From Patescibacteria group bacterium (GTDB lineage: Bacteria > Patescibacteriota > Minisyncoccia > Minisyncoccales > JAHCRE01), in contig JAHCRF010000001.1 of assembly GCA_020148055.1 (NCBI GenBank), positions 71,257 through 135,256 of the forward strand: a stretch of 64,000 bases of DNA. The letters run 5' to 3'. Position numbers and translations under genes: made by a program. The notes under the pieces are model-generated. The model did no database searches and was not told the DNA's origin. It saw nothing but the letters and a program-made list of their open reading frames with translations. Position 1 is the stretch's first letter. The number at the start of each line of letters is the position of its first letter. Positions 1,426 to 54,010 of the stretch are shown here, one piece after another.

Positions 1426-2694
1426 TTAACTTATTCTTAAATTCGCATCAGCTTCAATATCAGGGGCCCGCCAAAGGCGGGAAGGTGGTCGGGACGCGAG
1501 GCCTTCTCGTGAAACGGGAGGCCCCGTCCTTGGGCGGGTCGGAGTCCAGGCCTTAGTTTCTTTTCTGAGATAACGAAAATAAGCAGCTACTGCCACCATA
1601 ACGGCATTATCAGTACATAAAATTTTTGGTGGAACCAAAAATTTAATCGTTAATCGCTGGTTTTTAATTGCTAATTGAAATTGTTTTCTTAATTCATTAT
1701 TGGCAGCCACCCCTCCACCAAGGATAATCATTCCGGCTTTATATTTTCTTGCTGCCTGGATGGTTTTATGAATTAAAACGTCAACTATTGCCTGTTGGAC
1801 CTCGGTAGACATTTCCTGGATAAATTTTTGCTTTTTGCGTTCTGTTTTCTGTTTTTTGATTTTATATAAGACCGCGGTTTTCAGACCAGAAAAACTGAAA
1901 TCAAAATTTTTTTGGTGAATCATTGGCCTCGGTAATTGAATATTGAATATTGAATATTGAATATTGGATTTTAATTGAGCGGCAAGCCGTTCAATGGCCG
2001 GTCCTCCTGGGTAATCCATTCCTAAAATTCTGGCTACTTTGTCAAAACATTCACCAGCAGCATCATCTCGAGTTTCACCAAGGATTTTGTATTCTCCGTA
2101 ATTTTTCATTAAAATTAACTGGGTATGACCGCCGCTTACCACTAAACAAACTGCCGGAAACGAAAACTTTAAACTTGAACCAACCAAGTTGGCGAAAATG
2201 TGAGCTTCGATATGGTTTACTGGGATTATTGGTAGTTCCCAAGAAAAAGCTAAAGCTTTGGCAAAATTTACCCCTACCCACAAGCAAGGTTCTAACCCTG
2301 GCCCCATAGTCACGGCAATTAGATCAATTTTTGGTTTCCTGTAATTTCTTAAGAATTCTTTTAACTCCTTTAAAAGATATTCTTCTCGTTTGAATATTTC
2401 TTCTAATACTGGATACTTGATACTTAATAGTTGATGCTTATCATTTTTTTTAAGCGATTTTGCTTTTTTTAACGCCCTTTTTAAAACAGGAATCAAATTT
2501 CGTTGGTGCTCTCTTTTAGCTAAGGTTGGATAGACTCCTCCATATTTTCTGTGAATTTTTATCTGAGAAGAGATAATATCAGACAGAATATTAATTTTCA
2601 TCCGTCTAAATCCGCGTTGTAATCTACCTTTATCTACTTCTACAATCGCTATACAGGTATCGTCACATGATGTTTCGACAGCAAGAATAATCAT
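1426..2694 (-). CDS. tsaD: tRNA N6-adenosine threonylcarbamoyltransferase TsaD (Kae1/Gcp family)
   Basis: MIILAVETSCDDT, NHIEAHI, VSGGHTQL, LCTDNAVM motifs. At 422 aa it is longer than usual because of repeat inserts at 1463-1547 and 1935-1969. Confidence 0.9.
   Translation of the reverse strand: MIILAVETSCDDTCIAIVEVDKGRLQRGFRRMKINILSDIISSQIKIHRKYGGVYPTLAKREHQRNLIPVLKRALKKAKSLKKNDKHQLLSIKYPVLEEIFKREEYLLKELKEFLRNYRKPKIDLIAVTMGPGLEPCLWVGVNFAKALAFSWELPIIPVNHIEAHIFANLVGSSLKFSFPAVCLVVSGGHTQLILMKNYGEYKILGETRDDAAGECFDKVARILGMDYPGGPAIERLAAQLKSNIQYSIFNIQLPRPMIHQKNFDFSFSGLKTAVLYKIKKQKTERKKQKFIQEMSTEVQQAIVDVLIHKTIQAARKYKAGMIILGGGVAANNELRKQFQLAIKNQRLTIKFLVPPKILCTDNAVMVAVAAYFRYLRKETKAWTPTRPRTGPPVSREGLASRPPSRLWRAPDIEADANLRIS
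1463..1547 (+). repeat. GC-rich hairpin element family A, copy 1 (in frame near the 3' end of tsaD, antisense to the host)
   Basis: 85 nt, about 87% identical by eye to 28032-28115. It is a GC island in AT-rich DNA and encodes ...TPTRPRTGPPVSREGLASRPPSRLWRAP... of TsaD. Confidence 0.9.
1935..1969. repeat. five-heptamer array (attgaat x4 + attggat) inside tsaD
   Basis: Direct reading. Encodes ...SNIQYSIFNIQ... upstream of the conserved FDFSFSGLKTAV. Confidence 0.85.
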
Positions 2695-2780
2695 AGAACT
2701 ATGAATTAAGAATAATGAATCATGAATAATAAAGAAAATAAGTTTCTCGCATAATTCATAATTCCTAATTCCTGATTCAT
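2693..2780. repeat. composite palindrome: inverted heptamer arrays (..tatgaat taagaat aatgaat catgaat / ataattc ataattc ctaattc ctgattc) around a short core
   Basis: Direct reading. Lies in the tsaD / tRNA-Glu spacer. Same 'gaat/attc' word family as 30476-30556, 37402-37510 and 48315-48401. Confidence 0.75.
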
Positions 2781-2833
2781 TTTAACGTTTGTCTTGCCTT
2801 TTTTCAATTTTTTAATTAAAATGATGATAGTTT

Positions 2834-2905
2834 GGCCTCGTCGTCTAGTGGTTAGGACAAGGGGCTTTCAATCCCTAAACACGGGTTCGATTCCCGTCGA
2901 GGCCA
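2834..2905 (+). tRNA. tRNA-Glu (anticodon UUC)
   Basis: Cloverleaf by hand: acceptor ggcctcg/cgaggcc, anticodon loop cuUUCaa, T-loop ttcgatt. No encoded CCA. Track ORF 2794 reads through it. Confidence 0.85.
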
Positions 2906-2913
2906 CTATTTTT

Positions 2914-4488
2914 ATGAAGGATTATTATCTTAAAGTTAACAAGGCTTCTGATCTTAAAGATAAACAAGAAAGAATAATTTTTCGTATTTTAGAGATTTTG
3001 CCTGGTTTTTTAAGCTGGGCAATTTTACTTTTAGTTATCATTTTATCTTGGCAAAAGCCGATTTTGGTAGCTGTCTTTATCATCTTTTTTGTAATTTTTT
3101 GGTTATTTAGAACAATCTACTTTTCATTTCATCTCCGGGCTGGCTATCAAAAAATGAAAGAACACGAAAATATTGATTGGCTAGCAAAGCTTAATCAACT
3201 GAGAGATAGAAACTGGAAAGATATCTATCATTTAATAGTCTTACCAATGTATAAAGAGCCTTTAGGAATTATTAAGGAAACCTTTAAAGCCTTAGAAAAT
3301 ACTGATTATCCTAAAGATAAAATGATTGTAGTTTTAGCTTGTGAGGAAAGAGCTGGAGAGGAAGCAAAAGAAACTGCCAGGATTATTGAAAAAGAATTTG
3401 CCAATAAATTTTTCAAATTTTTAATCACTTTTCATCCTCCAGATTTACCCGGAGAGATTGCTGCTAAAAGCTCAAATGAGACCTTTGGGGTAAAAAAAGC
3501 CAAGGAATTGATTATTGATCCATTTAAAATTCCTTATCAAAATATAATTTTTTCTTCTTTAGATGCCGATACTAAAATTTTTCCAAGATATTTTAGTTGT
3601 CTTACTTATCATTATTTAACCTCAAAAAACCCAACTAGAACTAGTTTTCAACCCATCCCTCTTTTTATTAATAATATCTGGCAGGCCCCTGGTATTTCTC
3701 GAGTTTTTTCCTTTTCCTCAACCTTTTGGCATACTATTAATCAGCAAAGGCCAGAAAAATTGATTACTTTCTCTTCCCATTCAATGAGTTTTTTAGCCTT
3801 AGTTGATACTGGATTCAAACAGACCAATGTAGTTTCTGATGACTCCAGAATTTTTTGGCAATGTTTTTTAAAATACAACGGAGACTATAAGGTTCAGCCT
3901 ATTTTTTATCCGGTTTCAATGGATGCTAATGTTTCTCGGAGTTTCTTTAGAACCTTAATCAATATCTACAAACAACAAAGAAGGTGGGCTTATGGAGTAG
4001 GGGATATCCCTTATTTTCTTTTTGGTTTTTTTAAAAATAAAAAAATCCCAATCTCAAAAAAATTTTCTTTAGGATTTGAGTTAATTGAAGGACACTTGTC
4101 TTGGGCTACTGCCTCGTTTTTAATTTTTCTATTAGGCTGGGTACCTTTAGTTTTAGGAGGAGAGGAGTTTAACCAGACCCTAATTTCTTATAATTTACCC
4201 TTGATAACCAGAAATATTTTAACTTTAGCAATGGTAGGCCTAACCGGATCTATCTATTTTAGTCTTAATTTACTCCCTCCTAAACCCCCTGAATATGGTC
4301 GGCTTAAATATTTATTTTTTGCTTTTCAATGGTTTTTAATTCCCTTAACAATGATATTTTTTGTTTCCCTACCAGCTTTAGATGCTCAGACGAGATTGAT
4401 GTTAGGGAAATATATGGGTTTTTGGCCGACTGAGAAAATTCGAAGGAATCTTACAAATTACGAATTTCCTCGAATTACGAATTCGTAA
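2914..4488 (+). CDS. membrane-embedded processive family-2 glycosyltransferase (cellulose/chitin-synthase-like)
   Basis: Start moved to ATG 2914, downstream of the tRNA. Has N- and C-terminal TM segments, VLPMYKEP, SSLDADT and QQRRW (QxxRW) motifs. Confidence 0.7.
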   Translation: MKDYYLKVNKASDLKDKQERIIFRILEILPGFLSWAILLLVIILSWQKPILVAVFIIFFVIFWLFRTIYFSFHLRAGYQKMKEHENIDWLAKLNQLRDRNWKDIYHLIVLPMYKEPLGIIKETFKALENTDYPKDKMIVVLACEERAGEEAKETARIIEKEFANKFFKFLITFHPPDLPGEIAAKSSNETFGVKKAKELIIDPFKIPYQNIIFSSLDADTKIFPRYFSCLTYHYLTSKNPTRTSFQPIPLFINNIWQAPGISRVFSFSSTFWHTINQQRPEKLITFSSHSMSFLALVDTGFKQTNVVSDDSRIFWQCFLKYNGDYKVQPIFYPVSMDANVSRSFFRTLINIYKQQRRWAYGVGDIPYFLFGFFKNKKIPISKKFSLGFELIEGHLSWATASFLIFLLGWVPLVLGGEEFNQTLISYNLPLITRNILTLAMVGLTGSIYFSLNLLPPKPPEYGRLKYLFFAFQWFLIPLTMIFFVSLPALDAQTRLMLGKYMGFWPTEKIRRNLTNYEFPRITNS

Positions 4489-4515: not shown

Positions 4516-6711
4516 TTATTCTAAATGGATTCTTTCTCGAAACTTCTCTACTCTTCCCCTTAATAAGGGATATTTTTTTAATTCAGGGTCCTCTTCTAAA
4601 ATTTCTTTAGCCGCCTTTCTAGTTTTCTCAACTAAGAATATATCTTTCAAAGCTGACATTGCTAAATCAGGAATTCCCCATTGTCTTTGACCAAAAAAAT
4701 CACCAGGGCCTCGAATTCCCAAATCTTTTTCAGCTAACTCAAAACCATTTTCAGAAGAAATCAAAGCTTTCAATCGTTGATGAGTTTTCTTAGCTGGAGA
4801 GTCAGTGAATAAAAAGCAAAAAGATTGATATTTTGATCTTCCTACTCTTCCCCGAAATTGATGGAGCTGCGCTAGCCCAAATCTTTCTGCTCCCTCAATC
4901 ATCATTACCGTGGCATTAGGAACATCGATCCCCACTTCAATTACTGAGGTTGAGACTAAAATGTCAATCTTTTTACCCCTTCCGGTTTGTGCAGAAAAAT
5001 GTTTCATTATCTTCTCTTTTTCTTTTGTAGTCATTTTCCCGTGTAACATTCCAACTTTTAAATCAGGGAAAACAATTTTTGATAGTTTTTGATATTCTTC
5101 TTTTACTGCCCTTACCTCAGCCCAGCTTGAAATTTCTTTTTCTATTTTTTCCTTATCACTAGGTTCAATCCTTGGGCAAATAACAAAAACCTGTCTTCCT
5201 TTTTTAACAACAGAGCGTATAAAATTATAAGCAGCCTTACGATTTCCCGGGGCAATCACCTTAGTGACGATTTTTTTCCTTCCCTTCGGCAATTCATTAA
5301 TTAAAGAAAGATCAAGATCACCGTAAATAGTAAGAGCCAAAGTCCTTGGAATTGGGGTAGCGGTCATTGATAATAAATGGGGAATTATTCTTGTTGCTTG
5401 CCCGCCTGCCGGCGAGGCTGGTTGCTGGTTGCTAGTTGCTAACTTTGCCCTTTGTTCCACTCCAAACCGATGCTGCTCATCCAGGATAACCAGAGCCAAT
5501 TTTCCAAAGCGCACTTTTTCTTGAATTAAGGCGTGAGTACCAATTAAAAGATCAATCTCTTCTTTTTTTAATTTTTCTAAAAGTTTTTCTCGAGAAATTT
5601 TGATAACTTTATTTTTTCTGTCGCCGAAAGCGACTCCCCGGAGGGTTGCTCTTTTAGAAAAAATTCTATTTTCTTTCCCGGTTAAAAGACCAATATTTAA
5701 ATTAAATTTTTTTAAAAGTTTTGAAATCTCCTGAAAATGTTGCTTAGCTAGGATTTCAGTTGGAGCCATAAAAGCCACTTGGAAACCTTGTTTTATTACA
5801 TTTAAAGCAGCTAATACAGCCACCACTGTTTTCCCTGAACCAACATCGCCTTCTAAAAGTCTGTTCATCGGTCTTGGTTTTTCGAGGTCTTTTAGAATCT
5901 GCCAGGCTGATTTTTTTTGGGCATTAGTTAATTTGAAAGGTAAGCTTTTAACAAAATTCTTAATTAACTGGGGATGAAAAGGGATTGGAATTGCTCTTTC
6001 TTTTGAGATTTTTAATTTCTCTCTTAAAACAAAAAGAGAAATAAAAAAAAGCTCCTCAAAAGAAAATCTTTTCTGAGCCTTTTTGGCTAAGGTTAAGGAA
6101 TCTGGGAAATGAATCTGCCAGATAGCTCTTTGGATTGGCAAAATTCGAGAATCTCTAATTACTTTTCCTGGTAGGGGTTCGCGAATTTTCTTTTTAAACT
6201 CAACCAAAAGGGGTCTTAGAATAAATCTTAACCATCTTGAAGACAATCCTTCAGTTTCGGGATAAACAGGGACAATTCTTCCGGTATGAATTAGACTTGT
6301 AGTTTGACTGATTTTCTCATGAGCTGGATTTGATAGATAAAGTCCTTTGTCTCCGAGAGTTATTTTTCCAGCTAAACATAAATTATCTCCTGATTTTAAA
6401 ACTTTTATTAAATAAGGTTGGTTAAACCAGATTACCTTTATTGCTCCTGATTTGTCTTTGACTATTGCCTGGGTTAAAATCATTCTTTTTTTCCAGGTTC
6501 TGATGTTTTCAATTTCTAGAATTTTTACCTTAATACAACAGGTTTCATTAAGTTTTACTTGAGATATCGGAATTATATTTGAAAAATCCTCATAGCGATG
6601 AGGAAAATGATAGAGAAGATCCCTGATTGTCTTTATTCCCAATTTCTTCAACCTCTTTTGGTAGCTGAGACCTACTCGAGGCAGACTCTCAATTGGAGTA
6701 GAAAGATTCAT
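4516..6711 (-). CDS. recG: ATP-dependent DNA helicase RecG
   Basis: Start moved to ATG 6711 (MNLSTPIESLPRVG), below the tRNA. Has DVGSGKT Walker A, LDEQHRFG, MTATPIPRTL and QFRGRVGRS. Contains inserts B and E. Confidence 0.9.
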   Translation of the reverse strand: MNLSTPIESLPRVGLSYQKRLKKLGIKTIRDLLYHFPHRYEDFSNIIPISQVKLNETCCIKVKILEIENIRTWKKRMILTQAIVKDKSGAIKVIWFNQPYLIKVLKSGDNLCLAGKITLGDKGLYLSNPAHEKISQTTSLIHTGRIVPVYPETEGLSSRWLRFILRPLLVEFKKKIREPLPGKVIRDSRILPIQRAIWQIHFPDSLTLAKKAQKRFSFEELFFISLFVLREKLKISKERAIPIPFHPQLIKNFVKSLPFKLTNAQKKSAWQILKDLEKPRPMNRLLEGDVGSGKTVVAVLAALNVIKQGFQVAFMAPTEILAKQHFQEISKLLKKFNLNIGLLTGKENRIFSKRATLRGVAFGDRKNKVIKISREKLLEKLKKEEIDLLIGTHALIQEKVRFGKLALVILDEQHRFGVEQRAKLATSNQQPASPAGGQATRIIPHLLSMTATPIPRTLALTIYGDLDLSLINELPKGRKKIVTKVIAPGNRKAAYNFIRSVVKKGRQVFVICPRIEPSDKEKIEKEISSWAEVRAVKEEYQKLSKIVFPDLKVGMLHGKMTTKEKEKIMKHFSAQTGRGKKIDILVSTSVIEVGIDVPNATVMMIEGAERFGLAQLHQFRGRVGRSKYQSFCFLFTDSPAKKTHQRLKALISSENGFELAEKDLGIRGPGDFFGQRQWGIPDLAMSALKDIFLVEKTRKAAKEILEEDPELKKYPLLRGRVEKFRERIHLE
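5383..5439 (-). repeat. element family B, copy 1 (gcaacNN heptamers + GC hairpin), in frame in recG
   Basis: Sense strand gcaactagcaaccagcaaccagcctcgccggcaggcgggcaagcaacaagaataatt is about 90% identical to 50750-50807. Encodes ATSNQQPASPAGGQATR. Confidence 0.9.
5620..5649 (+). repeat. element family E, copy 1 (gtcgccgaaagcgactcc hairpin), in frame in recG
   Basis: The gtcgc/gcgac stem with its flank resembles 48138-48156 (gtcgccgtaaggcgactcc). Encodes ..TLRGVAFGDRK... Confidence 0.7.
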
Positions 6712-7051: not shown

Positions 7052-7060
7052 CAATTTTTT

Positions 7061-7084
7061 AAAAACCGGCGAAGCCGGTTTTTT
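7061..7084. terminator. bidirectional intrinsic terminator (aaaaa-ccggc-gaa-gccgg-tttttt)
   Basis: 5-bp GC stem flanked by an A-run and a T-run, between the tRNA-Ser pair (+) and comF (-). Confidence 0.7.
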
Positions 7085-7115
7085 ATTCCTAATTCTGGAT
7101 TCATAATTCTTAATT
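7081..7115. repeat. five-heptamer half-element (ttttatt cctaatt ctggatt cataatt cttaatt)
   Basis: Direct reading. Same unit family as the right arm at 37476-37510. Abuts the terminator hairpin. Confidence 0.7.
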
Positions 7116-7119
7116 TTAA

Positions 7120-16161: not shown

Positions 16162-16962
16162 ATGGAGTTGGTTTCCTTTTTCTCTCTTTTTATTTTCCTT
16201 TTTGGATTAGCAGTAGGTAGTTTTTTAAATTCAATAATTCACCGCTTACATACCGGCGAAAGTTTTCTATTTACTCATTCCTATTGTCCTCATTGTAAGC
16301 ACAAATTAAGCTGGCAAGATTTAATTCCTATTTTGAGTTTTCTAATTTTAAAAGGAAAATGCCGATATTGTAAAAAAAAGGTGTCCTTGCAATATCCCTT
16401 GGTTGAGTCAGCAACTGGAATTTTATTTATTTTAACTACCCATTACACACTACTTACTATAAGCTACGAAAGTTTACTGTTTACTGTTTACTGTTTACTG
16501 TTAAGTTGTTTCTTAATAATAATTTTCGTTTACGATTTAAAACACTATATTATTCCGGATAAAATAATTTATCCTGCAATAGGCATTGCCTTTATCTATA
16601 ATATTCTTTATTCATACTTCATAATTCATAATTCCTATTTCCTTGTAAATAGTTTATTAGCAGCCTTTACTGGAGGCCTCTCTTTTCTTTTTATTTTTCT
16701 CCTTTCGGGTGGCAAATGGATGGGTTTTGGTGATGTTAAGTTAGTTTTCTTTATGGGTCTTTTTTTGAGTTTTCCAGATATTTTGGTTGCTCTGTTTTTA
16801 GCCTTTTTAGTTGGTGCTATAATAGGGATAGGGTTGATTTCGGCTGGTAAAAAAACTCTTAAGAGTGAAGTTCCTTTTGGCCCTTTTCTGGTGACAGGAG
16901 CCTTTATCGCTTTCTGTTTCGGAAATCAAATAGTAAATTGGTATTTAAAAATTTTAAGATGA
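16162..16962 (+). CDS. pilD: prepilin peptidase PilD (A24 family) with N-terminal Cys4 domain
   Basis: CPHC...CRYC, multiple TMs and the GFGDVKL catalytic Asp context. TATAAT lies 6 nt upstream of the ATG. Carries two heptamer arrays. Confidence 0.85.
   Translation: MELVSFFSLFIFLFGLAVGSFLNSIIHRLHTGESFLFTHSYCPHCKHKLSWQDLIPILSFLILKGKCRYCKKKVSLQYPLVESATGILFILTTHYTLLTISYESLLFTVYCLLLSCFLIIIFVYDLKHYIIPDKIIYPAIGIAFIYNILYSYFIIHNSYFLVNSLLAAFTGGLSFLFIFLLSGGKWMGFGDVKLVFFMGLFLSFPDILVALFLAFLVGAIIGIGLISAGKKTLKSEVPFGPFLVTGAFIAFCFGNQIVNWYLKILR
16472..16506. repeat. five-heptamer array (gtttact x4 + gttaagt) inside pilD
   Basis: Direct reading. Encodes ..LLFTVYCLLLSC... Confidence 0.8.
16607..16641. repeat. 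five-heptamer array (tttattc atacttc ataattc ataattc ctatttc) inside pilD
   Basis: Contains the 18-mer attcatacttcataattc, which is identical to part of the rpoB-rpoC spacer arm (30522-30556). Confidence 0.8.
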
Positions 16963-19156: not shown

Positions 19157-19708
19157 TTACTCTCTAATTATTTTCCCTACCATCTCTAAAGCTTTTAATA
19201 TTATCATTGCTTTTGCCAGCCCCCTTTCTTTTTTTGGTGGAAAATGAAATCTTTTAACTAAAATTTTATCTCTTAATATTACTCCAATATCTACCTGACC
19301 TACTTTCTTCTCTGGAAATCTCAGGTCAGGTCTTGAAATTATTCCGGTAATTCCAATTCCAATATCGGAGCCTTTAATTTTTTTTACTGCTTTTTGGGCT
19401 AAAGCTTCAGCTATTTGAGTACTATAAACTGAATATTTTTTAATTAATTTTCTTGGGATTCCCAAAGCTATTTTTTCTTGCTTAGAATAAGGAACAAAAC
19501 CTCCTTTTATAATTTCTGAAGCGCCTGGGATATTTGTGATTGAATTTATCAAGCCCCCCCCCGTGCAAGATTCCATTGTAGCCAAAAACAATTTTTTCCT
19601 TTTTAAAGTGATTACTAAATTTTTAGCTAAAAATTTAATTTTTTTCTCAAGAATTCTCTTTTTAAATTTTTCTTTTCTTAAGTCAATTTCTTCAAAATTT
19701 TCTTTCAT
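19157..19708 (-). CDS. pncC: CinA-C/PncC-type nicotinamide-nucleotide amidohydrolase
   Basis: ATMESCTGGGLINSITNIPGAS...GGFVPYS motif region. Confidence 0.75.
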   Translation of the reverse strand: MKENFEEIDLRKEKFKKRILEKKIKFLAKNLVITLKRKKLFLATMESCTGGGLINSITNIPGASEIIKGGFVPYSKQEKIALGIPRKLIKKYSVYSTQIAEALAQKAVKKIKGSDIGIGITGIISRPDLRFPEKKVGQVDIGVILRDKILVKRFHFPPKKERGLAKAMIILKALEMVGKIIRE

Positions 19709-21225
19709 GATTTTAAAATGTAGGGTAAATTTCTTTTCCCTTTTGCCTTTTGATACTTTCTTAAAATCAAATCAATTTTTGATTTTTTTATTCTAAATTT
19801 CTTTTCAATTTCTTTTTTTGAAATTTTTAAATCCTCAATAGCAGATAAAACCGTGTCAATTTCCAAATAAAAGGCTCCGATTTCTCCTTCATCTGTCTGA
19901 CCTTTCCATAGTTCAGGAGAAGGAGCTCTTTTGAGAATTTCATCTGTAATTTCTCTAAAGAAATTGGCTATTTGATAAACTTGGATTTTATAAAGATTAT
20001 TTATCGGTTCAACTCCTGAAACTCTATCTCCACCGATTGTAAAATATCCCAACCTTTCTTCACTTTTATCTTCACTCCCAATAACAATAGCACGCTTGAC
20101 AGCTGATAAATCAAATAAAATCCCCATTCTTTCTCTTGCCATTAAATTTCCTTTTCTGATTTTTATGTTCCCACCTTTAAATTTTTTTAGAATTTTCCAG
20201 CTTAGATCAACCTGTTTATTTATTGGAATAGTAATTAAATTTTCTTTTGGCAATTTTAAATTTCTTGCCAATTTTTCAGCTAAAATTAGGCTTTCTTTTG
20301 AAGAAATTCCCAAGTAAGGCATTCTTAAAAAATAGACATTTTTTGGACCTAAAGCCTTAACTGCCAAAGTGGCAGCCAAGGCAGAGTCAATTCCTCCTGA
20401 TACTCCAATCACTGCTTTTTTGAAATGATATTTTTTAAAATAATTTCTTATCTCTTTAATTTTTTTCCCTGTAATCTCTCTGATTTTTTTCTGGGTAAAT
20501 CTTAAATGAGGAGGAATTTTTTCAAAATCAATGTAAGAAGCTCCTCTTGCTTCGTTCAAAAATCTCTCCTTCTTTAGAAAATAGGTTTTTCTTGGCATAT
20601 TTGGAGTAGTATATAATTTTTTTTCTTTAATATACTTTAGCACCTTTTCTGGCACCAAAGAAGTTAAATTTTTACCCTTCCTTATTCTTTCTCGAATTTT
20701 AGTAGCTGAAATCGGTATGTTTAAATTTACTTTTATTATCTTTTTAAAAGCTTTTTTTGATTTTTCTTTAAATTTTTTAGGAAGCTTTTTTAAATTAAAT
20801 TGGTGCCAAGATCTAGTAAAAACAATAAATTGAGCTAAATCTAAAATTTTTAAATCTCCTTTCCACTTCCCTTCAATAATTTCTCTTAAGGAATCTTCTC
20901 CAATTAACCAAAAAATTTGGCAGTTTCTCAACTTTTTTCTAAAAAATTTGAGTGTTTCAATAGTGAAACATTTTTTCTTTTTTCTTATCTCATAATCTGA
21001 AACTTCAAAATAAGGCCTTCTTTCAATTAAAAGCTTAGTCATCAAAAATCTATCTTTAGCTGAAGGCATTTTTTCTTTCTTCAAAGGAGGAACACCCGAA
21101 GGTAAAAAAATAATTTTTTCTAAATTAAGTTTCTTAAGGGCAGTTTCGGCTAAGATTAAATGGCCAAAATGGGGAGGATTGAGAGCTCCTCCTAATATCC
21201 CGATTTTTGAAATTTTTCTTTCCAT
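19705..21225 (-). CDS. fusion protein: nicotinate-nucleotide adenylyltransferase (NadD) + NH3-dependent NAD+ synthetase (NadE)
   Basis: N-terminal half has GILGGALNPPHFGHL and ISATKIRERI (NadD). C-terminal half has VIGVSGGIDSALAA (PP-loop NadE). Confidence 0.8.
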   Translation of the reverse strand: MERKISKIGILGGALNPPHFGHLILAETALKKLNLEKIIFLPSGVPPLKKEKMPSAKDRFLMTKLLIERRPYFEVSDYEIRKKKKCFTIETLKFFRKKLRNCQIFWLIGEDSLREIIEGKWKGDLKILDLAQFIVFTRSWHQFNLKKLPKKFKEKSKKAFKKIIKVNLNIPISATKIRERIRKGKNLTSLVPEKVLKYIKEKKLYTTPNMPRKTYFLKKERFLNEARGASYIDFEKIPPHLRFTQKKIREITGKKIKEIRNYFKKYHFKKAVIGVSGGIDSALAATLAVKALGPKNVYFLRMPYLGISSKESLILAEKLARNLKLPKENLITIPINKQVDLSWKILKKFKGGNIKIRKGNLMARERMGILFDLSAVKRAIVIGSEDKSEERLGYFTIGGDRVSGVEPINNLYKIQVYQIANFFREITDEILKRAPSPELWKGQTDEGEIGAFYLEIDTVLSAIEDLKISKKEIEKKFRIKKSKIDLILRKYQKAKGKRNLPYILKS

Positions 21226-26866: not shown

Positions 26867-26876
26867 AAAGTTTAAA

Positions 26877-26903
26877 GTGGGGGCTTGACCCCCCACCTAT
26901 TTT
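26877..26903 (+). terminator. intrinsic terminator (gtggggg-cttgac-cccccac + ctatttt)
   Basis: 7-bp GC stem plus a T-rich tail, immediately after the stop at 26866. Confidence 0.7.
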
Positions 26904-26918
26904 GCCGTTTAATCTACT

Positions 26919-26987
26919 GGCGGCACACTAAACGAATAGTTTGTCCTCCTAGGGGAGGACTGGGCTATTCGCCCACCGTGTGCCGCC
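26919..26987 (+). other. 69-nt three-helix GC-rich hairpin (candidate small RNA or intergenic palindromic element)
   Basis: ggcggcacac/gtgtgccgcc (10 bp), cgaatag/ctattcg (7 bp), gtcctcc/ggaggac (7 bp), loop tagg. All perfect Watson-Crick. Confidence 0.6.
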
Positions 26988-27056
26988 TAAGTTAAACACA
27001 CTTTTTCGTCGTATTTCTATAAAAAGATGAGTTGAGAAACAAAATAGGTGGGAGGG

Positions 27057-27084
27057 TTGACAAATCTTTAATTAGGAGTAAAAT
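27057..27084 (+). promoter_or_regulatory. rpoB promoter: GGTGGGAGGG-TTGACA-16-TAAAAT
   Basis: Motifs read directly. The same module occurs at 51830-51857. Confidence 0.55.
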
Positions 27085-27177
27085 TAAAAATATCCAATTA
27101 AATTTTTTCTCATTTTTTTTAATTTTAATTTGCCCTAAGAATAAAATAGAGGGTGATTTTAAATTTAATTCCTGAAA

Positions 27178-30100
27178 ATGAAGTTTAAAGATTTTTCAAA
27201 ATCAAAAATTTCCCTACCCTTACCTTATTTACTCTCGATTCAAAGAGAAAGCTGGCAGAGATTTTGGGAAAGAGATTTAAAAGAACTCTTTTCAGAAATA
27301 TCGCCCATTCAAGATTATACCGGAAAGGAGTTAGAACTCTGGTTTTTAGACTATAAATTGGATGAGCCCAAATATAAAACTACCTTGGAAGCTAAGGAGA
27401 ATAATGATTCTTATGAAGCAGCCTTGCGGGCTAGAGTAAGATTAGTCAATCTCAAAACAAAAGAAATTAAAGAACAAGAAGTCTTTTTAACCGATTTCCC
27501 CTTAATGACCAAGAGAGGAACTTTTATTGTTAACGGGATAGAAAGAGTAGTTATTTCTCAGCTTATTCGTTCCCCCGGCGCCTTTTTTACTTCTCAGATA
27601 ATTAGAGGTGAAACTCATTTTGGAGCAAAAATTATTCCTAATCGGGGAGCTTGGCTTGAATTTGGAACTGAAGCCTCCGGTTTTATTGGAGTTAAGATTG
27701 ACCGAAAGAGAAAAGTAGCAGCTACTACTTTATTGAGAGCTTTCGGAATTGATCAAGATGAAAAAATTCTAGAGATCTTCCAAGATATTGATAACAATCC
27801 AGAAATTAACTATATTTCAGAGACAATAAAAAGAGACCCTACTAAAAATCAAGCCGAAGCCTTAATTGAAGTCTATCAGCATCTAAGACCAGGAGATTTA
27901 ACAACCGCTGAGACAGCTAGAGAGTTGATTGAAAACATGTTTTTTAATTTTGAAAGATATGATTTGTCAAAAGTAGGGAGATGGCGAATGTGGCAGAGAC
28001 TACCGGAATTGAAAAAATCCAAAATCCAAAAGGGGCCCACGAAAGTGGGAGGGCGGTCGGGACGCGAGGCCTTCCCGCGGAACGGGAGGCCCCGTCCTTG
28101 GGTGGGTTGGAGTCCAAAATCCAAAACTAAAAAGCCAAAGCTAGAAGAAGGAATCACCAGGTCAGATAGGGTTTTGCATCCCGAAGATATTGTGGCTGTT
28201 TTGAGAGAGATTATTAGATTAAATAATGACCCCGGGGGAAAACCCGATCAGATTGATCATTTGGGCAATCGGCGAGTAAGAACTTTAAATGAACTTTTAC
28301 AAAACCGATTAAGGGTAGGTTTAATGAGAATGGCCAGGATTATCAAAGACCGAATGGCTACTTTAGATATTTCCATCTTAACCCCGGTTCAATTGATTAA
28401 TTCCCGACCATTTATAGCGATAGTTAGGGAATTCTTTACCTCTTCTCAGCTTGCTCAGTTTATGGACAATGAGAATCCTCTTGCTGAATTAGAGCATAAA
28501 AGAAGACTATCAGCTACCGGACCAGGTGGTTTAACTCGAGAAAGAGCTGGGTTTGAGGTTAGAGATGTTCAACCATCCCATTATGGAAGGATTTGCCCTA
28601 TCCAAACTCCTGAAGGACCAAATGTTGGGTTAATTAATCATTTAGCTGGTTTTGCCCGAGTTAATCCTTATGGTTTTATTGAAACTCCTTATTTCAAGGT
28701 GAAAAATGGAAGGGTTACTTCAGAAATTTGTTATCTTAATGCCTATGAAGAAGAAAAGTATAATATTGCCCATGGAGGAGTACCAATCGATGAGAAAGGC
28801 AAAATTACCTCCAAAAAGGTTGAAGCTAGAGTAAAGGGTGAACCAGGAATAGTTGGTAGAGAAAAAGTTGATTTTTTCGACATCTCTCCTGCCCAATCAA
28901 TTTCTATCGCTACTTCTTGCATTCCTTTTTTACAAAATGATGATGCCAACCGAGCCTTAATGGGATCAAATATGCAAAGACAAGCTGTTCCTCTTCTCAG
29001 ACCAGGGGTTCCCCTAGTTATTACTGGAGCAGAAGAGAAGGTAGCTAGAGATTCTGGCCAGGAGATAATTGCCGAGGAAGAAGGGGTTGTTACCGAAGTC
29101 GATGCTAATCATATTAAAATTAGGGGTAAAAAGGGAGAAAAGAAATATCCTCTGCAAACTTTTATTCAGACCAATCAATTCACTTGTTTTCATCAAAGCC
29201 CCTTAGTTAAAAAAGGGAAGGTTGTTAAAAAAGGAGACATTTTAACTGATGGTGGAGGAATTTCTCAAGAACATTTAGCTTTAGGCCGAAATATTTTGGT
29301 TGCTTTTATGTCCTGGCGTGGAGGAACTTTTGAAGATGCAATTTTGATTTCTGAAAGATTGGTTAGAGATGATGCTTATACTTCAATTCATATTGAGGAT
29401 TTTAGTTGTGATGTTCGAGAAACCAAATTGGGACCGGAGATTACAACCTGTGATATTCCTAACGTTTCAGAAGAAAAATTGAGGAATTTAGATGAAGAAG
29501 GTTTAGTCAGAATTGGGGCTGAAGTTGGCCCAAATGATATCTTGGTTGGGAAGATTTCTCCAAAAGGAGAAGTTGATTTAACTGCTGAGGAAAGATTATT
29601 GAGAGCTATTTTTGGAGAGAAAGCTAGAGAAGTTAAAGATACCTCTTTATTAATGGAGCATGGTAAACAGGGGAGGGTAATTAATGTGAAGATTTTTTCT
29701 AGAGAATCGGGTCATAGACTTGACCCCGGAGTGATAAAAAGAATTGATGTTAAAGTAGCGGAGATTAGAAAAACTCAAGCCGGTGATAAATTAGCTGGTC
29801 GCCATGGGAATAAGGGAGTGATTTCTAAGGTTTTACCAATTGAAGATATGCCATTTTTAGAAGATGGAACTCCAGTCGATATTATTTTAAATCCTCTAAG
29901 CATTGCCTCGCGAATGAATATTGGTCAAGTTCTGGAAGCTCATTTAGGAAAAGCGGCCAAAAAATTGGGCTACATTGCTATTTCTCCGGCCTTAGCTGGA
30001 GTGACTGAGGAAGAGATTAAAGAAGAGCTTAGGAAGGCTGGATTACCAGAAGATGGAAAAGTCGCTCTTTATGATGGCCGAACCGGCCTACCTTTTTCCA

Positions 30101-30480
30101 AAAAAATTACTGTTGGCTATGTTTATATGATGAAATTAATTCATATGGTTACCGATAAAATCCACGCCAGATCAATTGGACCTTATTCTCTAATTACTCA
30201 ACAGCCCTTAGGAGGAAAGGCCCAATTTGGAGGTCAAAGATTCGGAGAAATGGAAGTTTGGGCTTTAGAAGGACATGGAGCAGCCCATAGTTTACAGGAA
30301 ATGTTAACTATTAAATCCGATGATGTCCAAGGTCGGGCAGCTGCTTATCAGGCCATCTTAAAAGGAGAGCCAATCAGAAATCCTAATGTTCCCGCGTCTT
30401 TAAATTTACTAATCAATGAATTAAAGGCTCTTGGGCTAAATGTTGAAATAAAAGAAAACCCCAAAGAACAAGAATCCTGA
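27178..30480 (+). CDS. rpoB: DNA-directed RNA polymerase beta subunit
   Basis: 1100 aa with canonical beta motifs (GRHGNKGV, FGEMEVWALE). Carries a 123-nt repeat insert at 28014-28136. Confidence 0.97.
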   Translation: MKFKDFSKSKISLPLPYLLSIQRESWQRFWERDLKELFSEISPIQDYTGKELELWFLDYKLDEPKYKTTLEAKENNDSYEAALRARVRLVNLKTKEIKEQEVFLTDFPLMTKRGTFIVNGIERVVISQLIRSPGAFFTSQIIRGETHFGAKIIPNRGAWLEFGTEASGFIGVKIDRKRKVAATTLLRAFGIDQDEKILEIFQDIDNNPEINYISETIKRDPTKNQAEALIEVYQHLRPGDLTTAETARELIENMFFNFERYDLSKVGRWRMWQRLPELKKSKIQKGPTKVGGRSGREAFPRNGRPRPWVGWSPKSKTKKPKLEEGITRSDRVLHPEDIVAVLREIIRLNNDPGGKPDQIDHLGNRRVRTLNELLQNRLRVGLMRMARIIKDRMATLDISILTPVQLINSRPFIAIVREFFTSSQLAQFMDNENPLAELEHKRRLSATGPGGLTRERAGFEVRDVQPSHYGRICPIQTPEGPNVGLINHLAGFARVNPYGFIETPYFKVKNGRVTSEICYLNAYEEEKYNIAHGGVPIDEKGKITSKKVEARVKGEPGIVGREKVDFFDISPAQSISIATSCIPFLQNDDANRALMGSNMQRQAVPLLRPGVPLVITGAEEKVARDSGQEIIAEEEGVVTEVDANHIKIRGKKGEKKYPLQTFIQTNQFTCFHQSPLVKKGKVVKKGDILTDGGGISQEHLALGRNILVAFMSWRGGTFEDAILISERLVRDDAYTSIHIEDFSCDVRETKLGPEITTCDIPNVSEEKLRNLDEEGLVRIGAEVGPNDILVGKISPKGEVDLTAEERLLRAIFGEKAREVKDTSLLMEHGKQGRVINVKIFSRESGHRLDPGVIKRIDVKVAEIRKTQAGDKLAGRHGNKGVISKVLPIEDMPFLEDGTPVDIILNPLSIASRMNIGQVLEAHLGKAAKKLGYIAISPALAGVTEEEIKEELRKAGLPEDGKVALYDGRTGLPFSKKITVGYVYMMKLIHMVTDKIHARSIGPYSLITQQPLGGKAQFGGQRFGEMEVWALEGHGAAHSLQEMLTIKSDDVQGRAAAYQAILKGEPIRNPNVPASLNLLINELKALGLNVEIKENPKEQES
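28014..28136 (+). repeat. nested insert in rpoB: 'aaaatcc' heptamer array interrupted by element A
   Basis: aaaatcc aaaatcc aaaa[84-nt A]aaaatcc aaaacta aaaagcc. The total of 123 nt equals 41 codons. Confidence 0.8.
28032..28115 (+). repeat. GC-rich hairpin element family A, copy 2 (in frame in rpoB, sense)
   Basis: 84 nt, about 87% identical to 1463-1547. Encodes ..GPTKVGGRSGREAFPRNGRPRPWVGWSP... Confidence 0.9.
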
Positions 30481-30556
30481 ATTATGAATTAGGAATCAAG
30501 AATAAAAAATAAGAAATAAAAATTCATAATTCATACTTCATAATTCGTAATTCTGA
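30476..30556. repeat. composite palindrome in the rpoB-rpoC spacer: 5x7 'NNNgaat' array, 11-nt core, 5x7 'attcNNN' array
   Basis: cctgaat tatgaat taggaat caagaat aaaaaat / attcata attcata cttcata attcgta attctga. The left arm overlaps the rpoB stop codon. Confidence 0.8.
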
Positions 30557-30560
30557 TATT

Positions 30561-33500
30561 ATGAGAGTAGCTGATCTTAAATCAATAAAAATTCGCTTAG
30601 CCTCACCAGAAGAAATTTTATCTTGGTCTCATGGCGAGATTACTAAACCTGAAACCATCAATTATCGAACTCAAAGAGCAGAAAAGGACGGTCTTTTTTG
30701 TGAAAGAATTTTCGGGCCAACTAAAGATTATCAATGCTATTGCGGTAAATATAAAAGAATTCGTTATAAAGGGATAACTTGCGATCGCTGTGGGGTAGAA
30801 GTGACAAAATCTTCGGTCAGACGAGAGAGGATGGGTCATATCAAATTGGCCTCACCGGTTTCTCATATTTGGTTCTTAAGAGGAGTACCGTCGCGAATGG
30901 GAATAATCTTAAATGTTTCTTTACCCAAATTGGAAAGGGTAATTTATTTTGCTGCTTACATTATCACAGAAGTTATAGAGGAGGCTAAGAAAAGAGTTTT
31001 AAAAGAGATTGAGAAAGAATACAGGTCAAAGGTAAAAACTCAAAAAGCTTCCCCAGCCCCACCCGCCACCCATCAAAGGAAAAAAACATCTAAGGCAAAA
31101 ACAAAAAGTAAAAATAAAATAAAACCCCAAGACCTGAAAGTAGCCAGAGATAAAGCTAAAGAGGAAGTGTTAGCTTTGAAACCTTTGAAAATTCTTTCTG
31201 AGGTGGAATATCACAATCTTTCTTTTAAATATGGAGAGGTTTTTACAGCGGGAACAGGAGCAGAAACTCTAAGGAAAATTTTTGAGAAGATAGATTTTAA
31301 AAAAGAAATTACCAAATTAAAAAAAGAAATTGAAAAAGCCTCACCGGTGAGTCGAAGAAAAATTTTAAGGAGATTGAAACTCTTCCAGTCGATGTCTAAC
31401 GCAAAACTGAGACCAGAGTGGATGTTTCTGAATGTTTTGCCGATTTTACCCCCAGATTTAAGACCAATGGTTCAGTTAGATGGTGGTCGTTATGCTTCCT
31501 CTGATTTAAATGATCTTTATAGAAGAGTAATTAATCGGAACAACCGTTTGAAATATCTTTTAGAAATTGCAGCTCCTGAAGTTATTGTTAGAAATGAGAA
31601 AAGAATGTTGCAGGAAGCAGTTGATGCTCTGATCGATAATGGAATGAGAAAGGGAGTAATTACCAGGGCGACCACTGGAGGAAGAAGGCTTTTGAAATCT
31701 TTAGCTGATATGTTGAAAGGAAAACAAGGGAGATTCAGGCAAAATCTTTTAGGTAAAAGAGTTGATTATTCGGGCAGATCGGTGATTGTCGTTGGACCAA
31801 AATTAAGACTTCATCAGTGTGGTCTTCCTAAAAAGATGGCCTTGGAATTATTTAAACCTTTTGTTATTAAAAGAATTTTAGATAAAGAATTGGCTTACAA
31901 TGTAAGGGCAGCTTCGAGGTTGATTGAGCAGGAAACCGAGGAAGTTTGGGCAATCTTAGAAGAAGTGGTTAAAGATAAATTGGTTTTATTAAATCGGGCT
32001 CCAACCTTACATCGATTAGGAATCCAGGCTTTCCAACTAATATTAATTGAGGGAGAAGCAATTCAAGTCCATCCTTTAGTTTGTAAAGCCTTTAATGCCG
32101 ATTTTGATGGGGATCAAATGGCTATCCATTTACCTTTATCAACTGAGGCCCAAAAAGAGGCTAAAGAAATAATGTTATCTACCTTAAATCTTTTGAAACC
32201 AGCCACTGGTATTCCAATTGTAACTCCTACTCAAGATATTATCCTTGGCTGCTATTTTTTAACCAAAATTAAAGAGAAAGCTAAAGGGGAAGGGAAGATC
32301 TTTGGAAATTTCCAAGAGACCGTTTTAGCTTATGAGTTTGGAGAGGTAGACTTAAAAGCCGGAATCAAGGTTAAAATAAAGAATTCGGAATTTTTAGAGA
32401 CTTCGGTTGGGCGAATTATTTTTAATGAGACTTTACCCGCAGGCTTCCGGTTTATTAATGAAGTGATAAATTCAAAGAAATTAGAAAAAGTGATAAGTGA
32501 AATTATTGAAAATTACGGAATAGAAAGATCGGTTGCTACCCTGGATAAAATTAAAGATTTGGGATTTGAATATGCCACTATTTCAGGTTTATCCTGGGGA
32601 ATGGATGATTTAGATATTCCTAAAGAAAAAGAAGAATTAATTAAAGGGGCAGAAACAGAAATAGAGATGATCGAAGAACACTTCAAAAAAGGGTTACTGA
32701 CTGAGGAAGAAAAATATCTAAAGACAATTGAAATTTGGCAAAAAATAAAATCAAAAATTGAAAAAATTGTTCCGAAGACATTACCATCTGAGAGTTCAGC
32801 ATTTTCAATTGTTGATTCCGGAGCGAAAGGCTCCTGGATCCAACCTGTGCAGATGTGTGGAATGAAGGGTTTAGTGATTAATCCAATGGGACAGATTATT
32901 GAACTTCCAATCAAAAGTTCTTATAAAGAAGGATTTAATGTTTTGGAATATTTCATTTCTACCCATGGAGCAAGAAAAGGAACAGTTGATACGGCTCTAC
33001 GTACCTCTACTGCTGGCTACTTAACCAGAAGACTTATTGATGTCGCCCATGAGGCAGTAATAACTGAGGAAGATTGTCATGACGAGAAAGGGATTGAAAT
33101 ATCCAGAGGGGATGCTGAAGAAATTGGCCAGAATTTTATCTTCAAGATTTTAGGGAGAGTAGTTATAGAAGATGTCAGAAATCCCGCCAGAGGCGAGGCT
33201 CGCCAAGGGCGGCAAAAAGCAAAAAGCAAAATTATCAAAAAAGGAGAAATAATTGATTGGAAAGCGGCTGAGGAAATAATTAAAGCTGGGGTTGAAAAAG
33301 TTCGAGTTCGTTCTCCCTTAACTTGTAAGTCAACCAGAGGAATTTGCCAGAAATGCTATGGCTGGGATTTAGGCTCAAATCAATTAGTTAAATTAGGGGA
33401 AGCGATGGGGATTGTTGCTGCCCAGGCGATTGGCGAGCCGGGAACTCAATTAACGATGAGAACTTTTCATACCGGTGGCGTGGCTGGAGGAGAAGATATA

Positions 33501-37401: not shown

Positions 37402-37510
37402 GAATCACGAATCACGAATTATGAATTATGAATAGAATAAAAACGGTAATTCAAAAACTGCCCCCAAGGGCAGTTTTTTATTCTTGATTCCTAATTCCTT
37501 ATTCTATTTA
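37402..37510. repeat. composite palindrome: 5x7 array (gaatcac gaatcac gaattat gaattat gaataga), terminator core, inverted 5x7 array (ttttatt cttgatt cctaatt ccttatt ctattta)
   Basis: Direct reading. Lies between convergent recA and rpsR. The right arm overlaps the rpsR stop. Confidence 0.8.
37453..37479. terminator. bidirectional intrinsic terminator core (aaaaa-ctgccc-ccaa-gggcag-tttttt)
   Basis: 6-bp GC stem, 4-nt loop, flanking A-run and T-run. Confidence 0.8.
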
Positions 37511-37704: not shown

Positions 37705-37795
37705 CAGTATTTAGTATTTCGTATTAAGTATAAAGTATAAGAAAGAAAACCTCTGAGCTCGAACCTCAGATACTTTATACAGAATACTTGATACT

Positions 37796-37797
<2 letters not shown>
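37705..37797. repeat. composite palindrome of the 'agtatt/atact' family inside the rpsF-ssb-rpsR operon (ssb-rpsR spacer)
   Basis: cagtatt tagtatt tcgtatt aagtata aagtata, then core hairpin tctgag-ctcgaac-ctcaga (37752-37770), then atacttt atacaga atacttg atacttt. Confidence 0.8.
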
Positions 37798-38245
<448 letters not shown>

Positions 38246-43916: not shown

Positions 43917-43921
43917 GTTTT

Positions 43922-44010
43922 AAGTATTAGGTATTAAGTATAAAGTATCTAGTATTAAAAAAATAAAATTTAAAAATACTAAGCACTTAATACTAGATGC
44001 GAGATGCGTA
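43922..44010. repeat. composite palindrome, 'agtatt' family: 5x7 array, 19-nt A-rich core, inverted 5x7 array
   Basis: aagtatt aggtatt aagtata aagtatc tagtatt / atactaa gcactta atactag atgcgag atgcgta. Lies between the rnj start and tRNA-Leu. Confidence 0.8.

Positions 44011-52210: not shown

Positions 52211-54010
<1,800 letters not shown>

Follow-up and report, generated by a model that had tools for sequence, protein, structure and literature searches.

Why should 18 nucleotides of a prepilin peptidase gene recur, letter for letter, in the spacer between rpoB and rpoC? The locus lies in a 64,000-nt stretch of the genome of an uncultured Patescibacteria group bacterium (GenBank assembly GCA_020148055.1, contig JAHCRF010000001.1, positions 71,257 to 135,256), which we call the window and to which all coordinates refer unless another genome is named. 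The original prediction had noted an 18-nt identity between pilD and the right arm of a palindrome in the rpoB-rpoC spacer, had assigned the arrays of open reading frames (ORFs) and the arms of intergenic palindromes to one sequence family, and had described pilD as carrying a half-element. The identity is borne out: the 18-mer ATTCATACTTCATAATTC is present exactly at 16610-16627 (+), in pilD, and at 30529-30546 (+), in the spacer. The arrays and arms also proved to be one family, all of them tandem heptamers with an ATTC/GAAT core. We favor, with a probability of about 0.58, the explanation that a heptanucleotide simple-sequence-repeat (SSR) system, driven by slippage and filtered by selection, accounts for both the pilD array and the spacer arm.

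The features that pose the question are the following.

16162-16962 (+): pilD, prepilin peptidase / N-methyltransferase family, with two in-frame heptamer arrays
16603-16643 (+): ATTC-core array in pilD, units ATTCTTT ATTCATA CTTCATA ATTCATA ATTCCTA TTTCCT, encoding YSYFIIHNSYFL
16472-16502 (+): (GTTTACT)4.4 array in pilD, perfect (100% matches) and in frame, encoding SLLFTVYCLLL
30471-30554 (+): imperfect palindrome of the rpoB-rpoC spacer, the spacer itself being 80 nt long (30481-30560)

The pilD product has Pfam matches to A24_N_bact (aa 13-93, 6.8e-33) and Peptidase_A24 (aa 112-223, 2.6e-16), and is identical to a PilD on record as prepilin peptidase (Patescibacteria group bacterium). Its ATTC array is situated between the motifs VYDLKHY and GFGD, which we take to hold both catalytic aspartates of prepilin peptidases, and the 18-mer region translates as ..LYSYFIIHNSYFL.. 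(aa 149-161). Tandem Repeats Finder (TRF) assigns it period 7 at 16610-16634, with 3.6 copies and 88% matches. It is a lone arm with no inverted partner and is unfolded (-1.9 kcal/mol, z -0.1). The (GTTTACT)4.4 array, whose unit is unrelated, is located in the linker joining the two domains. In the spacer, the left GAAT arm (about 30478-30503) starts with the rpoB stop codon (30478-30480) and is followed by decayed A-rich heptamers (30504-30520) and then by the ATTC right arm (30521-30553; units ATTCATA ATTCATA CTTCATA ATTCGTA ATTCTGA), which holds the 18-mer. The palindrome has a predicted RNA fold of -16.7 kcal/mol (z -3.3). The hairpin was also considered as an intrinsic terminator and rejected, the spacer being without a terminator-like site.

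Low complexity alone, judged against shuffled sequence, had been put forward as the explanation that would undo the case for a shared family. It is refuted, because ATTCATACTTCATAATTC has 9 matches in the window at no more than two mismatches, far above the 0.01 expected from window shuffles that preserve dinucleotides. The proper null for the 18-mer is a pair of arrays drawn from one heptamer family; judged by this null, the match is nothing unusual. We brought 12 arms of the ATTC/GAAT family from the window into one orientation and compared their longest common exact strings. The longest, 20 nt, is shared by the left arm of the rpoB-rpoC palindrome and the right arm of a palindrome 3' of recA; strings of 18 nt connect the pilD array with the rpoB-rpoC right arm, the pilD array with an arm at 2750 (of the 2696-2778 pair), and the recA left arm with an arm in uvrC, and 17 nt is reached in two further cases. 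The pilD array and the 2750 arm have CATAATTCATAATTCCTA in common. When units were resampled from the family pool, 31% of trials gave a pilD-like arm an exact match of 18 nt or more to another arm, and in 81% some pair of arms reached 18 nt. Identities of 18-20 nt being ordinary within the family, the 18-mer is a sign of family membership and not of a special relationship between pilD and the spacer. The suggested matching of arms leads to the same place, since coding and intergenic arms intermix in pairwise similarity among these 12.

How general is the 7-nt register? A strict scan of the window found 14 period-7 arrays versus 0 in Markov shuffles, and every other period from 4 to 13 gave 0-2 arrays, a background level; a relaxed scan raised the period-7 count to 27. 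TRF likewise reports period 7 at 30521-30553 (4.7 copies) and at about 35 other loci. The pattern ATTC-Nk-ATTC-Nk-ATTC occurs 19 times at k=3 and never at k=0-2 or 4-8, and triplets of AGTA, TTAC, ATTG and TTGC nearly all have spacer 3, the strays being one ATTG triplet with spacer 5 and one TTGC triplet with spacer 2. These window counts describe 64 kb of genome. Beyond it, 706 kb of Patescibacteria pilD loci contain 34 ATTC triplets at spacer 3 versus at most 2 at any other spacer, and none at spacer 3 is found in 823 kb of loci whose G+C exceeds 42% and which belong for the most part to other phyla. An RpoC-based contig scan used too conserved a query; its 80 loci, few of them from close relatives and the majority from other phyla, served as controls. 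The period-7 effect is lineage-wide but graded, the ATTC/GAAT family being about 6x denser in this genome than in relatives.

Two trivial sources were considered and rejected. An assembly artefact is excluded by the presence of the same arrays in an independent sample (99.9% and 100% identity) and of analogous arrays in many unrelated assemblies. A protein heptad repeat, as in coiled coils or helix packing, does not fit a DNA period of 7 nt read in three frames, which is not a period of 21 nt, and a control region of pilD shows none.

Several unit families coexist in the window, among them ATTCNTR (GAATNNN on the opposite strand), AGTATNN, GCAAAAA, AGCAACC and GTTTACT; ATTCNTR/GAATNNN is the commonest. 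Eighteen of the 27 arrays from the relaxed scan lie in frame within ORFs: three each in tsaD and uvrC, two each in pilD and uvrA, and single ones in rpoB, rpoC, recG, a valS-like gene at the left end of the window and four further ORFs. Several of them are listed here.

1935-1966 (-): (ATTCAAT)4.6 array in tsaD, perfect and in frame, peptide SNIQYSIFNIQL
47521-47552 (-): (GCAAAAA)n array in uvrC, in frame, peptide KIKKQKAKSKK
1825-1863, 33212-33231 and 19733-19752 (sense orientation): (GCAAAAA)n arrays in tsaD, in rpoC and in an NAD synthase-domain gene (19705-21225), respectively
701-735 (-): (GTCAAAA)n array in the valS-like gene, in frame, peptide IKNQKSKVKSQK; the gene is truncated by the left end of the window

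The (GCAAAAA)n arrays of the four ORFs are all A-rich in the sense strand and give Lys-rich peptides of the KQKAKSK type. We presume the truncated gene to be valS-like from the HMGH and TTRPET motifs of its translation. The ATTCATA runs of pilD and uvrC are interrupted exactly where TAA would enter the frame; in pilD, the C that follows ATTCATA turns the would-be in-frame TAA into TAC. An A-rich array of another unit lies at 44670-44686 in the ORF at 44071-44727, and AGCAACC arrays in recG (5417-5441) and uvrA (50749-50768) encode ATSN(Q/K)QP peptides.

The history of the pilD sites can be followed in relatives. In an alignment of 24 PilD orthologues (61-73% identity), YSxFIIHNSxF occupies a semi-conserved spot of variable length, and two of the 24 are without about 10 residues there. 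At the DNA level, four orthologues inspected individually are heptamer-periodic at the linker site (16472-16502) in 4/4 cases and at the site of the 18-mer (16610-16643) in 3/4, with units that differ. A larger set consisted of 76 orthologues from metagenomes, with only in-frame genes kept and 8 of 84 loci unparsed; a site was called heptamer-periodic if lag-7 identity reached 80% or more across some 28-nt segment. By this measure 28 orthologues are periodic at the linker site and 35 at the 18-mer site, compared with 0-2 at the other lags from 4 to 11 and 0/76 in a control region of the same genes. The two sites are thus hot spots, periodic across orthologues of 50-73% identity with quite different lineage-specific units (TTTGGAA, GTATCTG, AATTTCC, TTACGAT, GTTTCAA and others, many in perfect 4-5 copy arrays). 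The length of the region around the 18-mer site peaks at 50, 54, 56, 57 and 64 aa, which includes a series in 7-aa, or three-unit, steps (50/57/64).

Of the ATTC-bearing orthologues compared, the four closest (L003, L004, L005 and L117) keep the ATTC array itself in the same register (TATTC...), and for this reason it looks old and vertically inherited and not like a recent insertion. Third-codon-position identity to the window is 0.55-0.73 in the array versus 0.45-0.52 in the rest of the gene (n=11). For the half-element this means that the name fits the shape descriptively and is not demonstrated as an origin: pilD holds two unrelated single arrays at sites that are heptamer-periodic across orthologues with differing units, the register of its ATTC array is that of its closest relatives, lone arms occur between genes as well, and the palindromes have neither a conserved loop nor, by eye, a visible target-site duplication.

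A perfect 4.4-copy repeat inside a pilus gene, with a unit not divisible by 3, also raises the thought of contingency loci, in which gain or loss of 7-nt units would shift the frame and phase-vary the type IV pilus peptidase, as heptanucleotide SSRs do in Haemophilus (PMC2651432, PMC8262952). We consider this highly improbable. Similar arrays reside in the essential single-copy genes rpoB, rpoC, tsaD, valS-like and uvrC, where switching off would kill the cell or serve no purpose; the ATTC array is not a perfect repeat; and the two samples of the strain are identical. All 76 parsed orthologues are in frame at both sites, a weak point because the parser kept in-frame genes only.

What happens to the arrays outside genes is best seen from the intergenic features.

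2696-2778 (+): ATTC/GAAT inverted pair between tsaD (-) and tRNA-Glu (+); fold -16.8 kcal/mol, z -2.3
7078-7119 (+): lone ATTC arm right after a terminator hairpin (about 7060-7080), between tRNA-Ser and a Pribosyltran/double-zinc-ribbon gene
37402-37510 (+): ATTC/GAAT inverted pair 3' of recA, its arms enclosing a classical intrinsic terminator (37453-37478); fold -29.4 kcal/mol, z -5.05
37706-37798 (+): AGTATNN...NNATACT inverted pair in the ssb-rpsR spacer, around a small hairpin; fold -23.2 kcal/mol, z -4.2
43920-43996 (+): second AGTAT/ATACT inverted pair, beside tRNA-Leu; fold -20.7 kcal/mol, z -2.9
52210-52279 (+): CGAAT/ATTCG inverted pair of period 7-8 in the groES-groEL spacer; fold -33.3 kcal/mol, z -5.9

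The intergenic pairs out-fold their shuffles (z -2.3 to -5.9); a coding pair in uvrC, described below, and the lone pilD arm do not. The loops are unrelated to one another (an A-rich run, a complete terminator, other sequence), and the arms share units but are neither collinear nor mirror copies, the 4-nt core alone being always complementary. The groES-groEL hairpin has neither the position nor the sequence of CIRCE (controlling inverted repeat of chaperone expression). At Rfam gathering thresholds the window contains tRNAs as its only known RNA families, and inspection revealed no conserved unit of the REP (repetitive extragenic palindrome) type beyond the heptamer cores, with no search made for RAYT (REP-associated tyrosine transposase) genes. 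In every ATTC/GAAT pair seen, the GAAT arm is 5' and the ATTC arm 3', on either strand, with no reverse arrangement; by inspection this holds for five window pairs (2696-2778, 30478-30553, 37402-37510, 48318-48398 and 52210-52279) and, in relatives, for L087 3525-3609 and L138 2785-2880. A general rule of 5'-purine polarity across all types of inverted pair was tried and is unsupported (11 versus 5, with redundancy); it holds for ATTC/GAAT only.

The rpoB-rpoC spacers of other Patescibacteria bear heptamer arrays too, with other units, and in several of them the arrays stand directly before start or after stop codons. The spacers of L007 and L083 fold significantly (z -3.3 and -3.7), those of L006, L034 and L015 have no significant hairpin despite their arrays, and L015 has CATAATTCATAATTCATAATTC as a lone arm. 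In the one relative checked at the recA 3' region, L088, there is a plain terminator without arms, which makes the recA 3' palindrome lineage-specific. Elsewhere in the same locus, in the divergent uvrA-uvrC spacer (L088 9735-9785), an 11-nt tandem repeat, CAACAGAGACC, occurs in about 4.5 copies, so the arrays of this clade are not all of period 7.

Arrays of this kind might instead be binding sites, read by a protein or RNA-binding factor that recognizes GAAT (GAAU) cores every 7 nt; a nucleoid, termination or processing factor would be a candidate, as would a DNA-uptake signal for competence pili. Core and spacing persist through the drift of the three variable positions, the pairs are symmetric and dimer-like with fixed polarity, the uvrC element is conserved at synonymous positions, and the placement at start and stop codons in rpoB-rpoC spacers would suit such a factor, as would the window's type IV pilus genes and the gene beside 7078-7119, which we take to be comF-like from its Pribosyltran and double-zinc-ribbon domains. 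We nevertheless regard a binding site as quite unlikely. At orthologous sites the units are wholly different (TTTGGAA, GTATCTG, AATTTCC, TTACGAT and others), one sequence-specific factor cannot read the several unrelated unit families of a single genome, a 4-nt core offers little specificity, and no candidate protein was identified. For an uptake sequence in particular, which is one motif of at least 9-12 nt, a constant part of only 4 nt and units that vary by lineage do not fit.

In the heptanucleotide SSR explanation that we prefer, slippage is the inferred engine: as DNA is replicated or repaired, slipped strands would mispair in a 7-nt register and so make arrays grow, shrink and homogenize, and selection would determine which of the products persist. 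In coding DNA the frame would be kept solely by changes of three units (21 nt, 7 codons), and an array would be read in all three frames to give a peptide periodic in 7 residues. The survivors would be stop-free unit variants in orientations whose peptide the protein can accommodate, T-rich arrays giving hydrophobic peptides in membrane proteins and A-rich arrays giving Lys-rich linkers. Because of this filter of 21-nt steps, stop-free units and tolerated peptides, coding arrays would gather at a few permissive linker sites and make them lasting hot spots across orthologues. In spacers no frame constraint would apply. There, arrays of one family in opposite orientations could pair through their GAAU/AUUC cores and so build or extend RNA hairpins at terminators and within operons (rpoB-rpoC, ssb-rpsR, groES-groEL); the intra-operon hairpins would plausibly act like REP-type structures that stabilize or process mRNA. 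The 18-nt identity would then exist because units are shared, and not because half of a mobile element was inserted into pilD.

Further support for a single family of coding arrays and intergenic arms comes from inverted pairs that are themselves coding. One whole pair is in frame in uvrC of the window:

48318-48398 (-): complete ATTC/GAAT inverted pair in uvrC, in frame (..ESRVRNQESRTKKKKPYNSSFIIHNSKF..), between the GIY-YIG and Cys-rich domains

Another is found in the pilD gene of L138 (2785-2999), where an in-frame ATTC/GAAT palindrome (GAATTAT...T-rich loop...ATTCCTA) occupies the linker site, and the counterpart of 16610-16643 holds one more ATTC arm. The uvrC pair folds weakly (-12.2 kcal/mol, z -1.6), since GAAU/AUUC cores alone pair, with 3x3 internal loops between them. 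Its site is 7-aa-periodic in most orthologues (KLEIRNLKLEI, KLQTTNYKLQT), and the full palindrome is limited to the window, P0128 and P0150, with identical length (41 aa from THQ to GPFV). The closest uvrC relative of the window, P0122, has a perfect (GAGACAA)4 at the palindrome site (L086, about 450-500) although its uvrC is otherwise 87% nucleotide-identical, which demonstrates complete replacement of the array between the two genomes. Orthologues that are 'empty' of the palindrome bear other heptamer arrays at the site, and there is no clean empty site among them.

Several observations weigh against slippage and selection as the whole account, and the uvrC data are, on the sequences compared, the strongest evidence against a purely local slippage origin. 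In a neighbor-joining tree the three carriers of the uvrC palindrome do not form a clade. Between the window and P0128, the element has 84% nucleotide identity (90% at third positions), the rest of the gene 68% (52%). Plain slippage does not predict such conservation, which points to nucleotide-level constraint, to gene conversion or transfer, or to a mobile element. The fixed GAAT-then-ATTC polarity is also unexplained, and so are inverted pairs situated in frame in coding sequence, for which a hairpin has no obvious role; GTATCTG/ATACTAA pairs are so placed at the 18-mer site of pilD in L092-L094 and L102. For an array to arise de novo in coding DNA, a step of 21 nt would be needed, and slippage that starts from one unit could hardly achieve it. 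Nor does the account explain why the unit should be 7 nt long. The C that averts the stop codon in pilD is also present in the non-coding rpoB-rpoC spacer (ATTCATA-C-TTCATA), opposite a U in the predicted fold, a detail that the account leaves unexplained. The (GTTTACT)4.4 array is perfect though its length equals that of the diverged homologous NTTACYN arrays of L002 and L005, so homogenization without net change of length would be required. Finally, the arrays are identical in the only other sample of the strain, with no length polymorphism seen, and look-ups of the exact PilD and RecA proteins for length variants of the strain returned identical contigs only.

Part of this evidence would suit a small non-autonomous mobile element of the MITE (miniature inverted-repeat transposable element) or RPE (Rickettsia palindromic element) kind, with heptamer arrays as terminal inverted repeats and a capacity for in-frame insertion into genes; the pilD array would be a copy that has decayed or been truncated. 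The 64 kb contain inverted arms of one family at about ten places, and these arms share strings of up to 20 nt, including a common loop-adjacent unit order, TTATTCTTGATTCCTAATTC, in the rpoB-rpoC left and recA right arms. Terminal inverted repeats are present at 2696-2778, 30478-30553, 37402-37510 and 48318-48398, and their polarity never varies. On the gene tree the uvrC copy has a patchy distribution, and its conservation far exceeds that of the host gene; whole in-frame pairs are found in the uvrC of three lineages and in the L138 pilD; the sixfold family density is what a burst would leave; and the genome bears other small inserts in essential genes (an 85-nt G+C-rich and a 65-nt exact repeat, see below). 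We still hold this reading to be rather unlikely. There is no conserved full-length consensus, with loops ranging from an A-rich run to a complete terminator, and the arms are not mirror copies. Other lineages have quite different heptamers, many of them perfect, at the same pilD and uvrC sites, some of the commonest pilD region lengths step by 7 aa and not by element-sized blocks, and the pilD register is common to its four closest ATTC-bearing orthologues. No target-site duplication flanks the palindromes by eye, with no formal search made, and no transposase was noticed in the window, most of whose ORFs were not searched. Were this reading correct, the Candidate Phyla Radiation (CPR) would possess an in-frame mobile element of the RPE kind.

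The uvrC palindrome could alternatively reflect an active, lineage-specific process that supplies permissive sites with 7-nt repeats (21-nt where the site is in a gene) as well as inverted copies of these; we judge this unlikely. A polymerase that stutters or switches template might be responsible, or else a small palindromic element with existing heptamer arrays as its targets. If so, linker and membrane segments of PilD, UvrC, RpoB/C, TsaD and the ValRS-like protein would be continually remodelled while hairpins are built in spacers, and the uvrC palindrome, with its patchy distribution, same polarity and synonymous-site identity of 90% versus 52%, would be a footprint of the process.

How does the heptanucleotide system compare with what is described in other bacteria? 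STRR (short tandemly repeated repetitive) heptanucleotide sequences were reportedly described in heterocystous cyanobacteria by Mazel in 1990. With them, and with heptameric SSRs in general, the window shares a 7-nt unit in dispersed head-to-tail arrays at many loci, specific over-representation of period 7, several unit families per genome and an unknown cause. The units differ (ATTCNTR, AGTATNN, GCAAAAA, GTTTACT and others here; CCCCAGT, TTGGTCA and CAACAGT in STRR), the host is a member of the Patescibacteria and not a heterocystous cyanobacterium, and STRR are mainly intergenic whereas 18 of 27 arrays here are in ORFs. The arrays of the window, moreover, are short at 3-6 units, are degenerate outside a core of 4-5 nt, have in-frame hot spots common to orthologues and are very frequently in inverted pairs. 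In the strict sense of STRR, defined by units, host and a mainly intergenic location, they are not members.

In its treatment of the subject, PMC4692102 (citing Mrazek 2007) describes heptameric SSRs as over-represented in many bacteria and mentions a proposed link to the DNA segment in the polymerase active site; slippage is the explanation proposed there for the general bacterial excess of heptamers. The Xanthomonas GGGAATC and Nostoc GGGGA(T/C)T repeats are intergenic and are kept between the same genes of related species with varying length and sequence (PMC4692102). Some of them form inverted pairs capable of stem-loops, as here, and the Xanthomonas unit contains GAATC; they are, however, G-rich and studied as G-quadruplex formers, whereas the arrays of the window are A+T-rich, form no G-quadruplex and are often coding. 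Similar in form are the TAACTGA arrays of marine Beggiatoaceae and some Cyanobacteria and Bacteroidetes. They have 2-6 copies each, are dispersed over many loci, lie for the most part immediately 5' of start codons and in some cases in ORFs and in ribosomal-protein and RNA polymerase operons, and are suspected of a post-transcriptional role (PMC4679880). TAACTGA is one exact heptamer that is almost always directly repeated (one inverted case), in contrast to the many degenerate units and common inverted pairs found here.

Palindromes of the RPE, MITE-like and REP types are about 75-110 nt long and lie between genes as well as in frame in essential genes, at permissive surface or linker positions. 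The Rickettsia palindromic elements were reportedly described by Ogata et al. in 2000. In outward form RPE resemble the in-frame palindromes of the window, and REP are comparable with its intra-operon hairpins. A full-length consensus is defined for both, and neither is internally periodic in 7 nt, whereas the arms here are heptameric, the loops are unconserved, neighboring lineages carry other heptamers at the same sites and no partner transposase or RAYT is known. In Borg genomes, repeat units within ORFs are said to be multiples of 3; a unit of 7 results instead in three-frame reading and in 21-nt steps only. The likeness to Borg tandem repeats is that of fast-evolving in-frame nucleotide repeats which add peptide segments and new disordered regions (PMC9879509).

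We found no relevant literature on heptamers or SSRs in Patescibacteria or the CPR, which is not proof of their absence. The window offers a clean case, apparently undescribed so far, of an unexplained bacterial phenomenon, notable for orthologous in-frame hot spots in essential genes, for 7-aa steps in region lengths and for frequent inverted pairing. What causes the excess of heptanucleotide repeats in bacteria, and what purpose it serves, have been questions ever since the cyanobacterial STRR were described. This clade is an unusually clean system in which to pursue them: genomes are small, the same two pilD sites can be followed through dozens of lineages with turnover of units, and the reading-frame filter appears to limit change to 21-nt steps and stop-free units. 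There are also consequences for annotation. In these bacteria, peptides of low complexity such as FIIHNSKF, KQKAKSK or RIMNYEL in conserved proteins are products of DNA repeats and not protein motifs, and many spacer 'palindromes' are paired arrays and not dedicated regulatory sites.

Some further observations concern other parts of the window. A 311-nt region upstream of rpoB (26867-27177) contains G+C-rich complementary blocks (gggggcttgacccccc; ggcggcacac...gtgtgccgcc) that suggest a structured leader RNA; this region has no Rfam hit at the gathering threshold. A mechanical ORF at 2794-4488, with a TTG start and no Pfam hit, overlaps tRNA-Glu (2834-2906) in the region 2794-2906, so its real start must be further downstream, if it is a gene at all.

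An 85-nt G+C-rich repeat, in a genome of about 35% G+C, is present at 1464-1548 and 28032-28116 in copies that are 85% identical. These are in frame in two essential genes in opposite orientations, at the C-terminus of tsaD and in rpoB, where the repeat reads GPTKVGGRSGREAFPRNGRPRPWVGWSP with Lys-rich heptamer-coded segments on either side. It has no Rfam hit, no copy among 169 fetched loci and no significant fold (z -1.7), and it looks like an RPE-like insert. A 65-nt repeat is 100% identical between 31037-31101, where it is in frame in rpoC, and 49629-49693, in uvrA. Stop codons come after the uvrA copy, and the UvrA reading continues in another frame; uvrA appears to have been split or frameshifted by a recent insert or, alternatively, to be an assembly chimera at this point.

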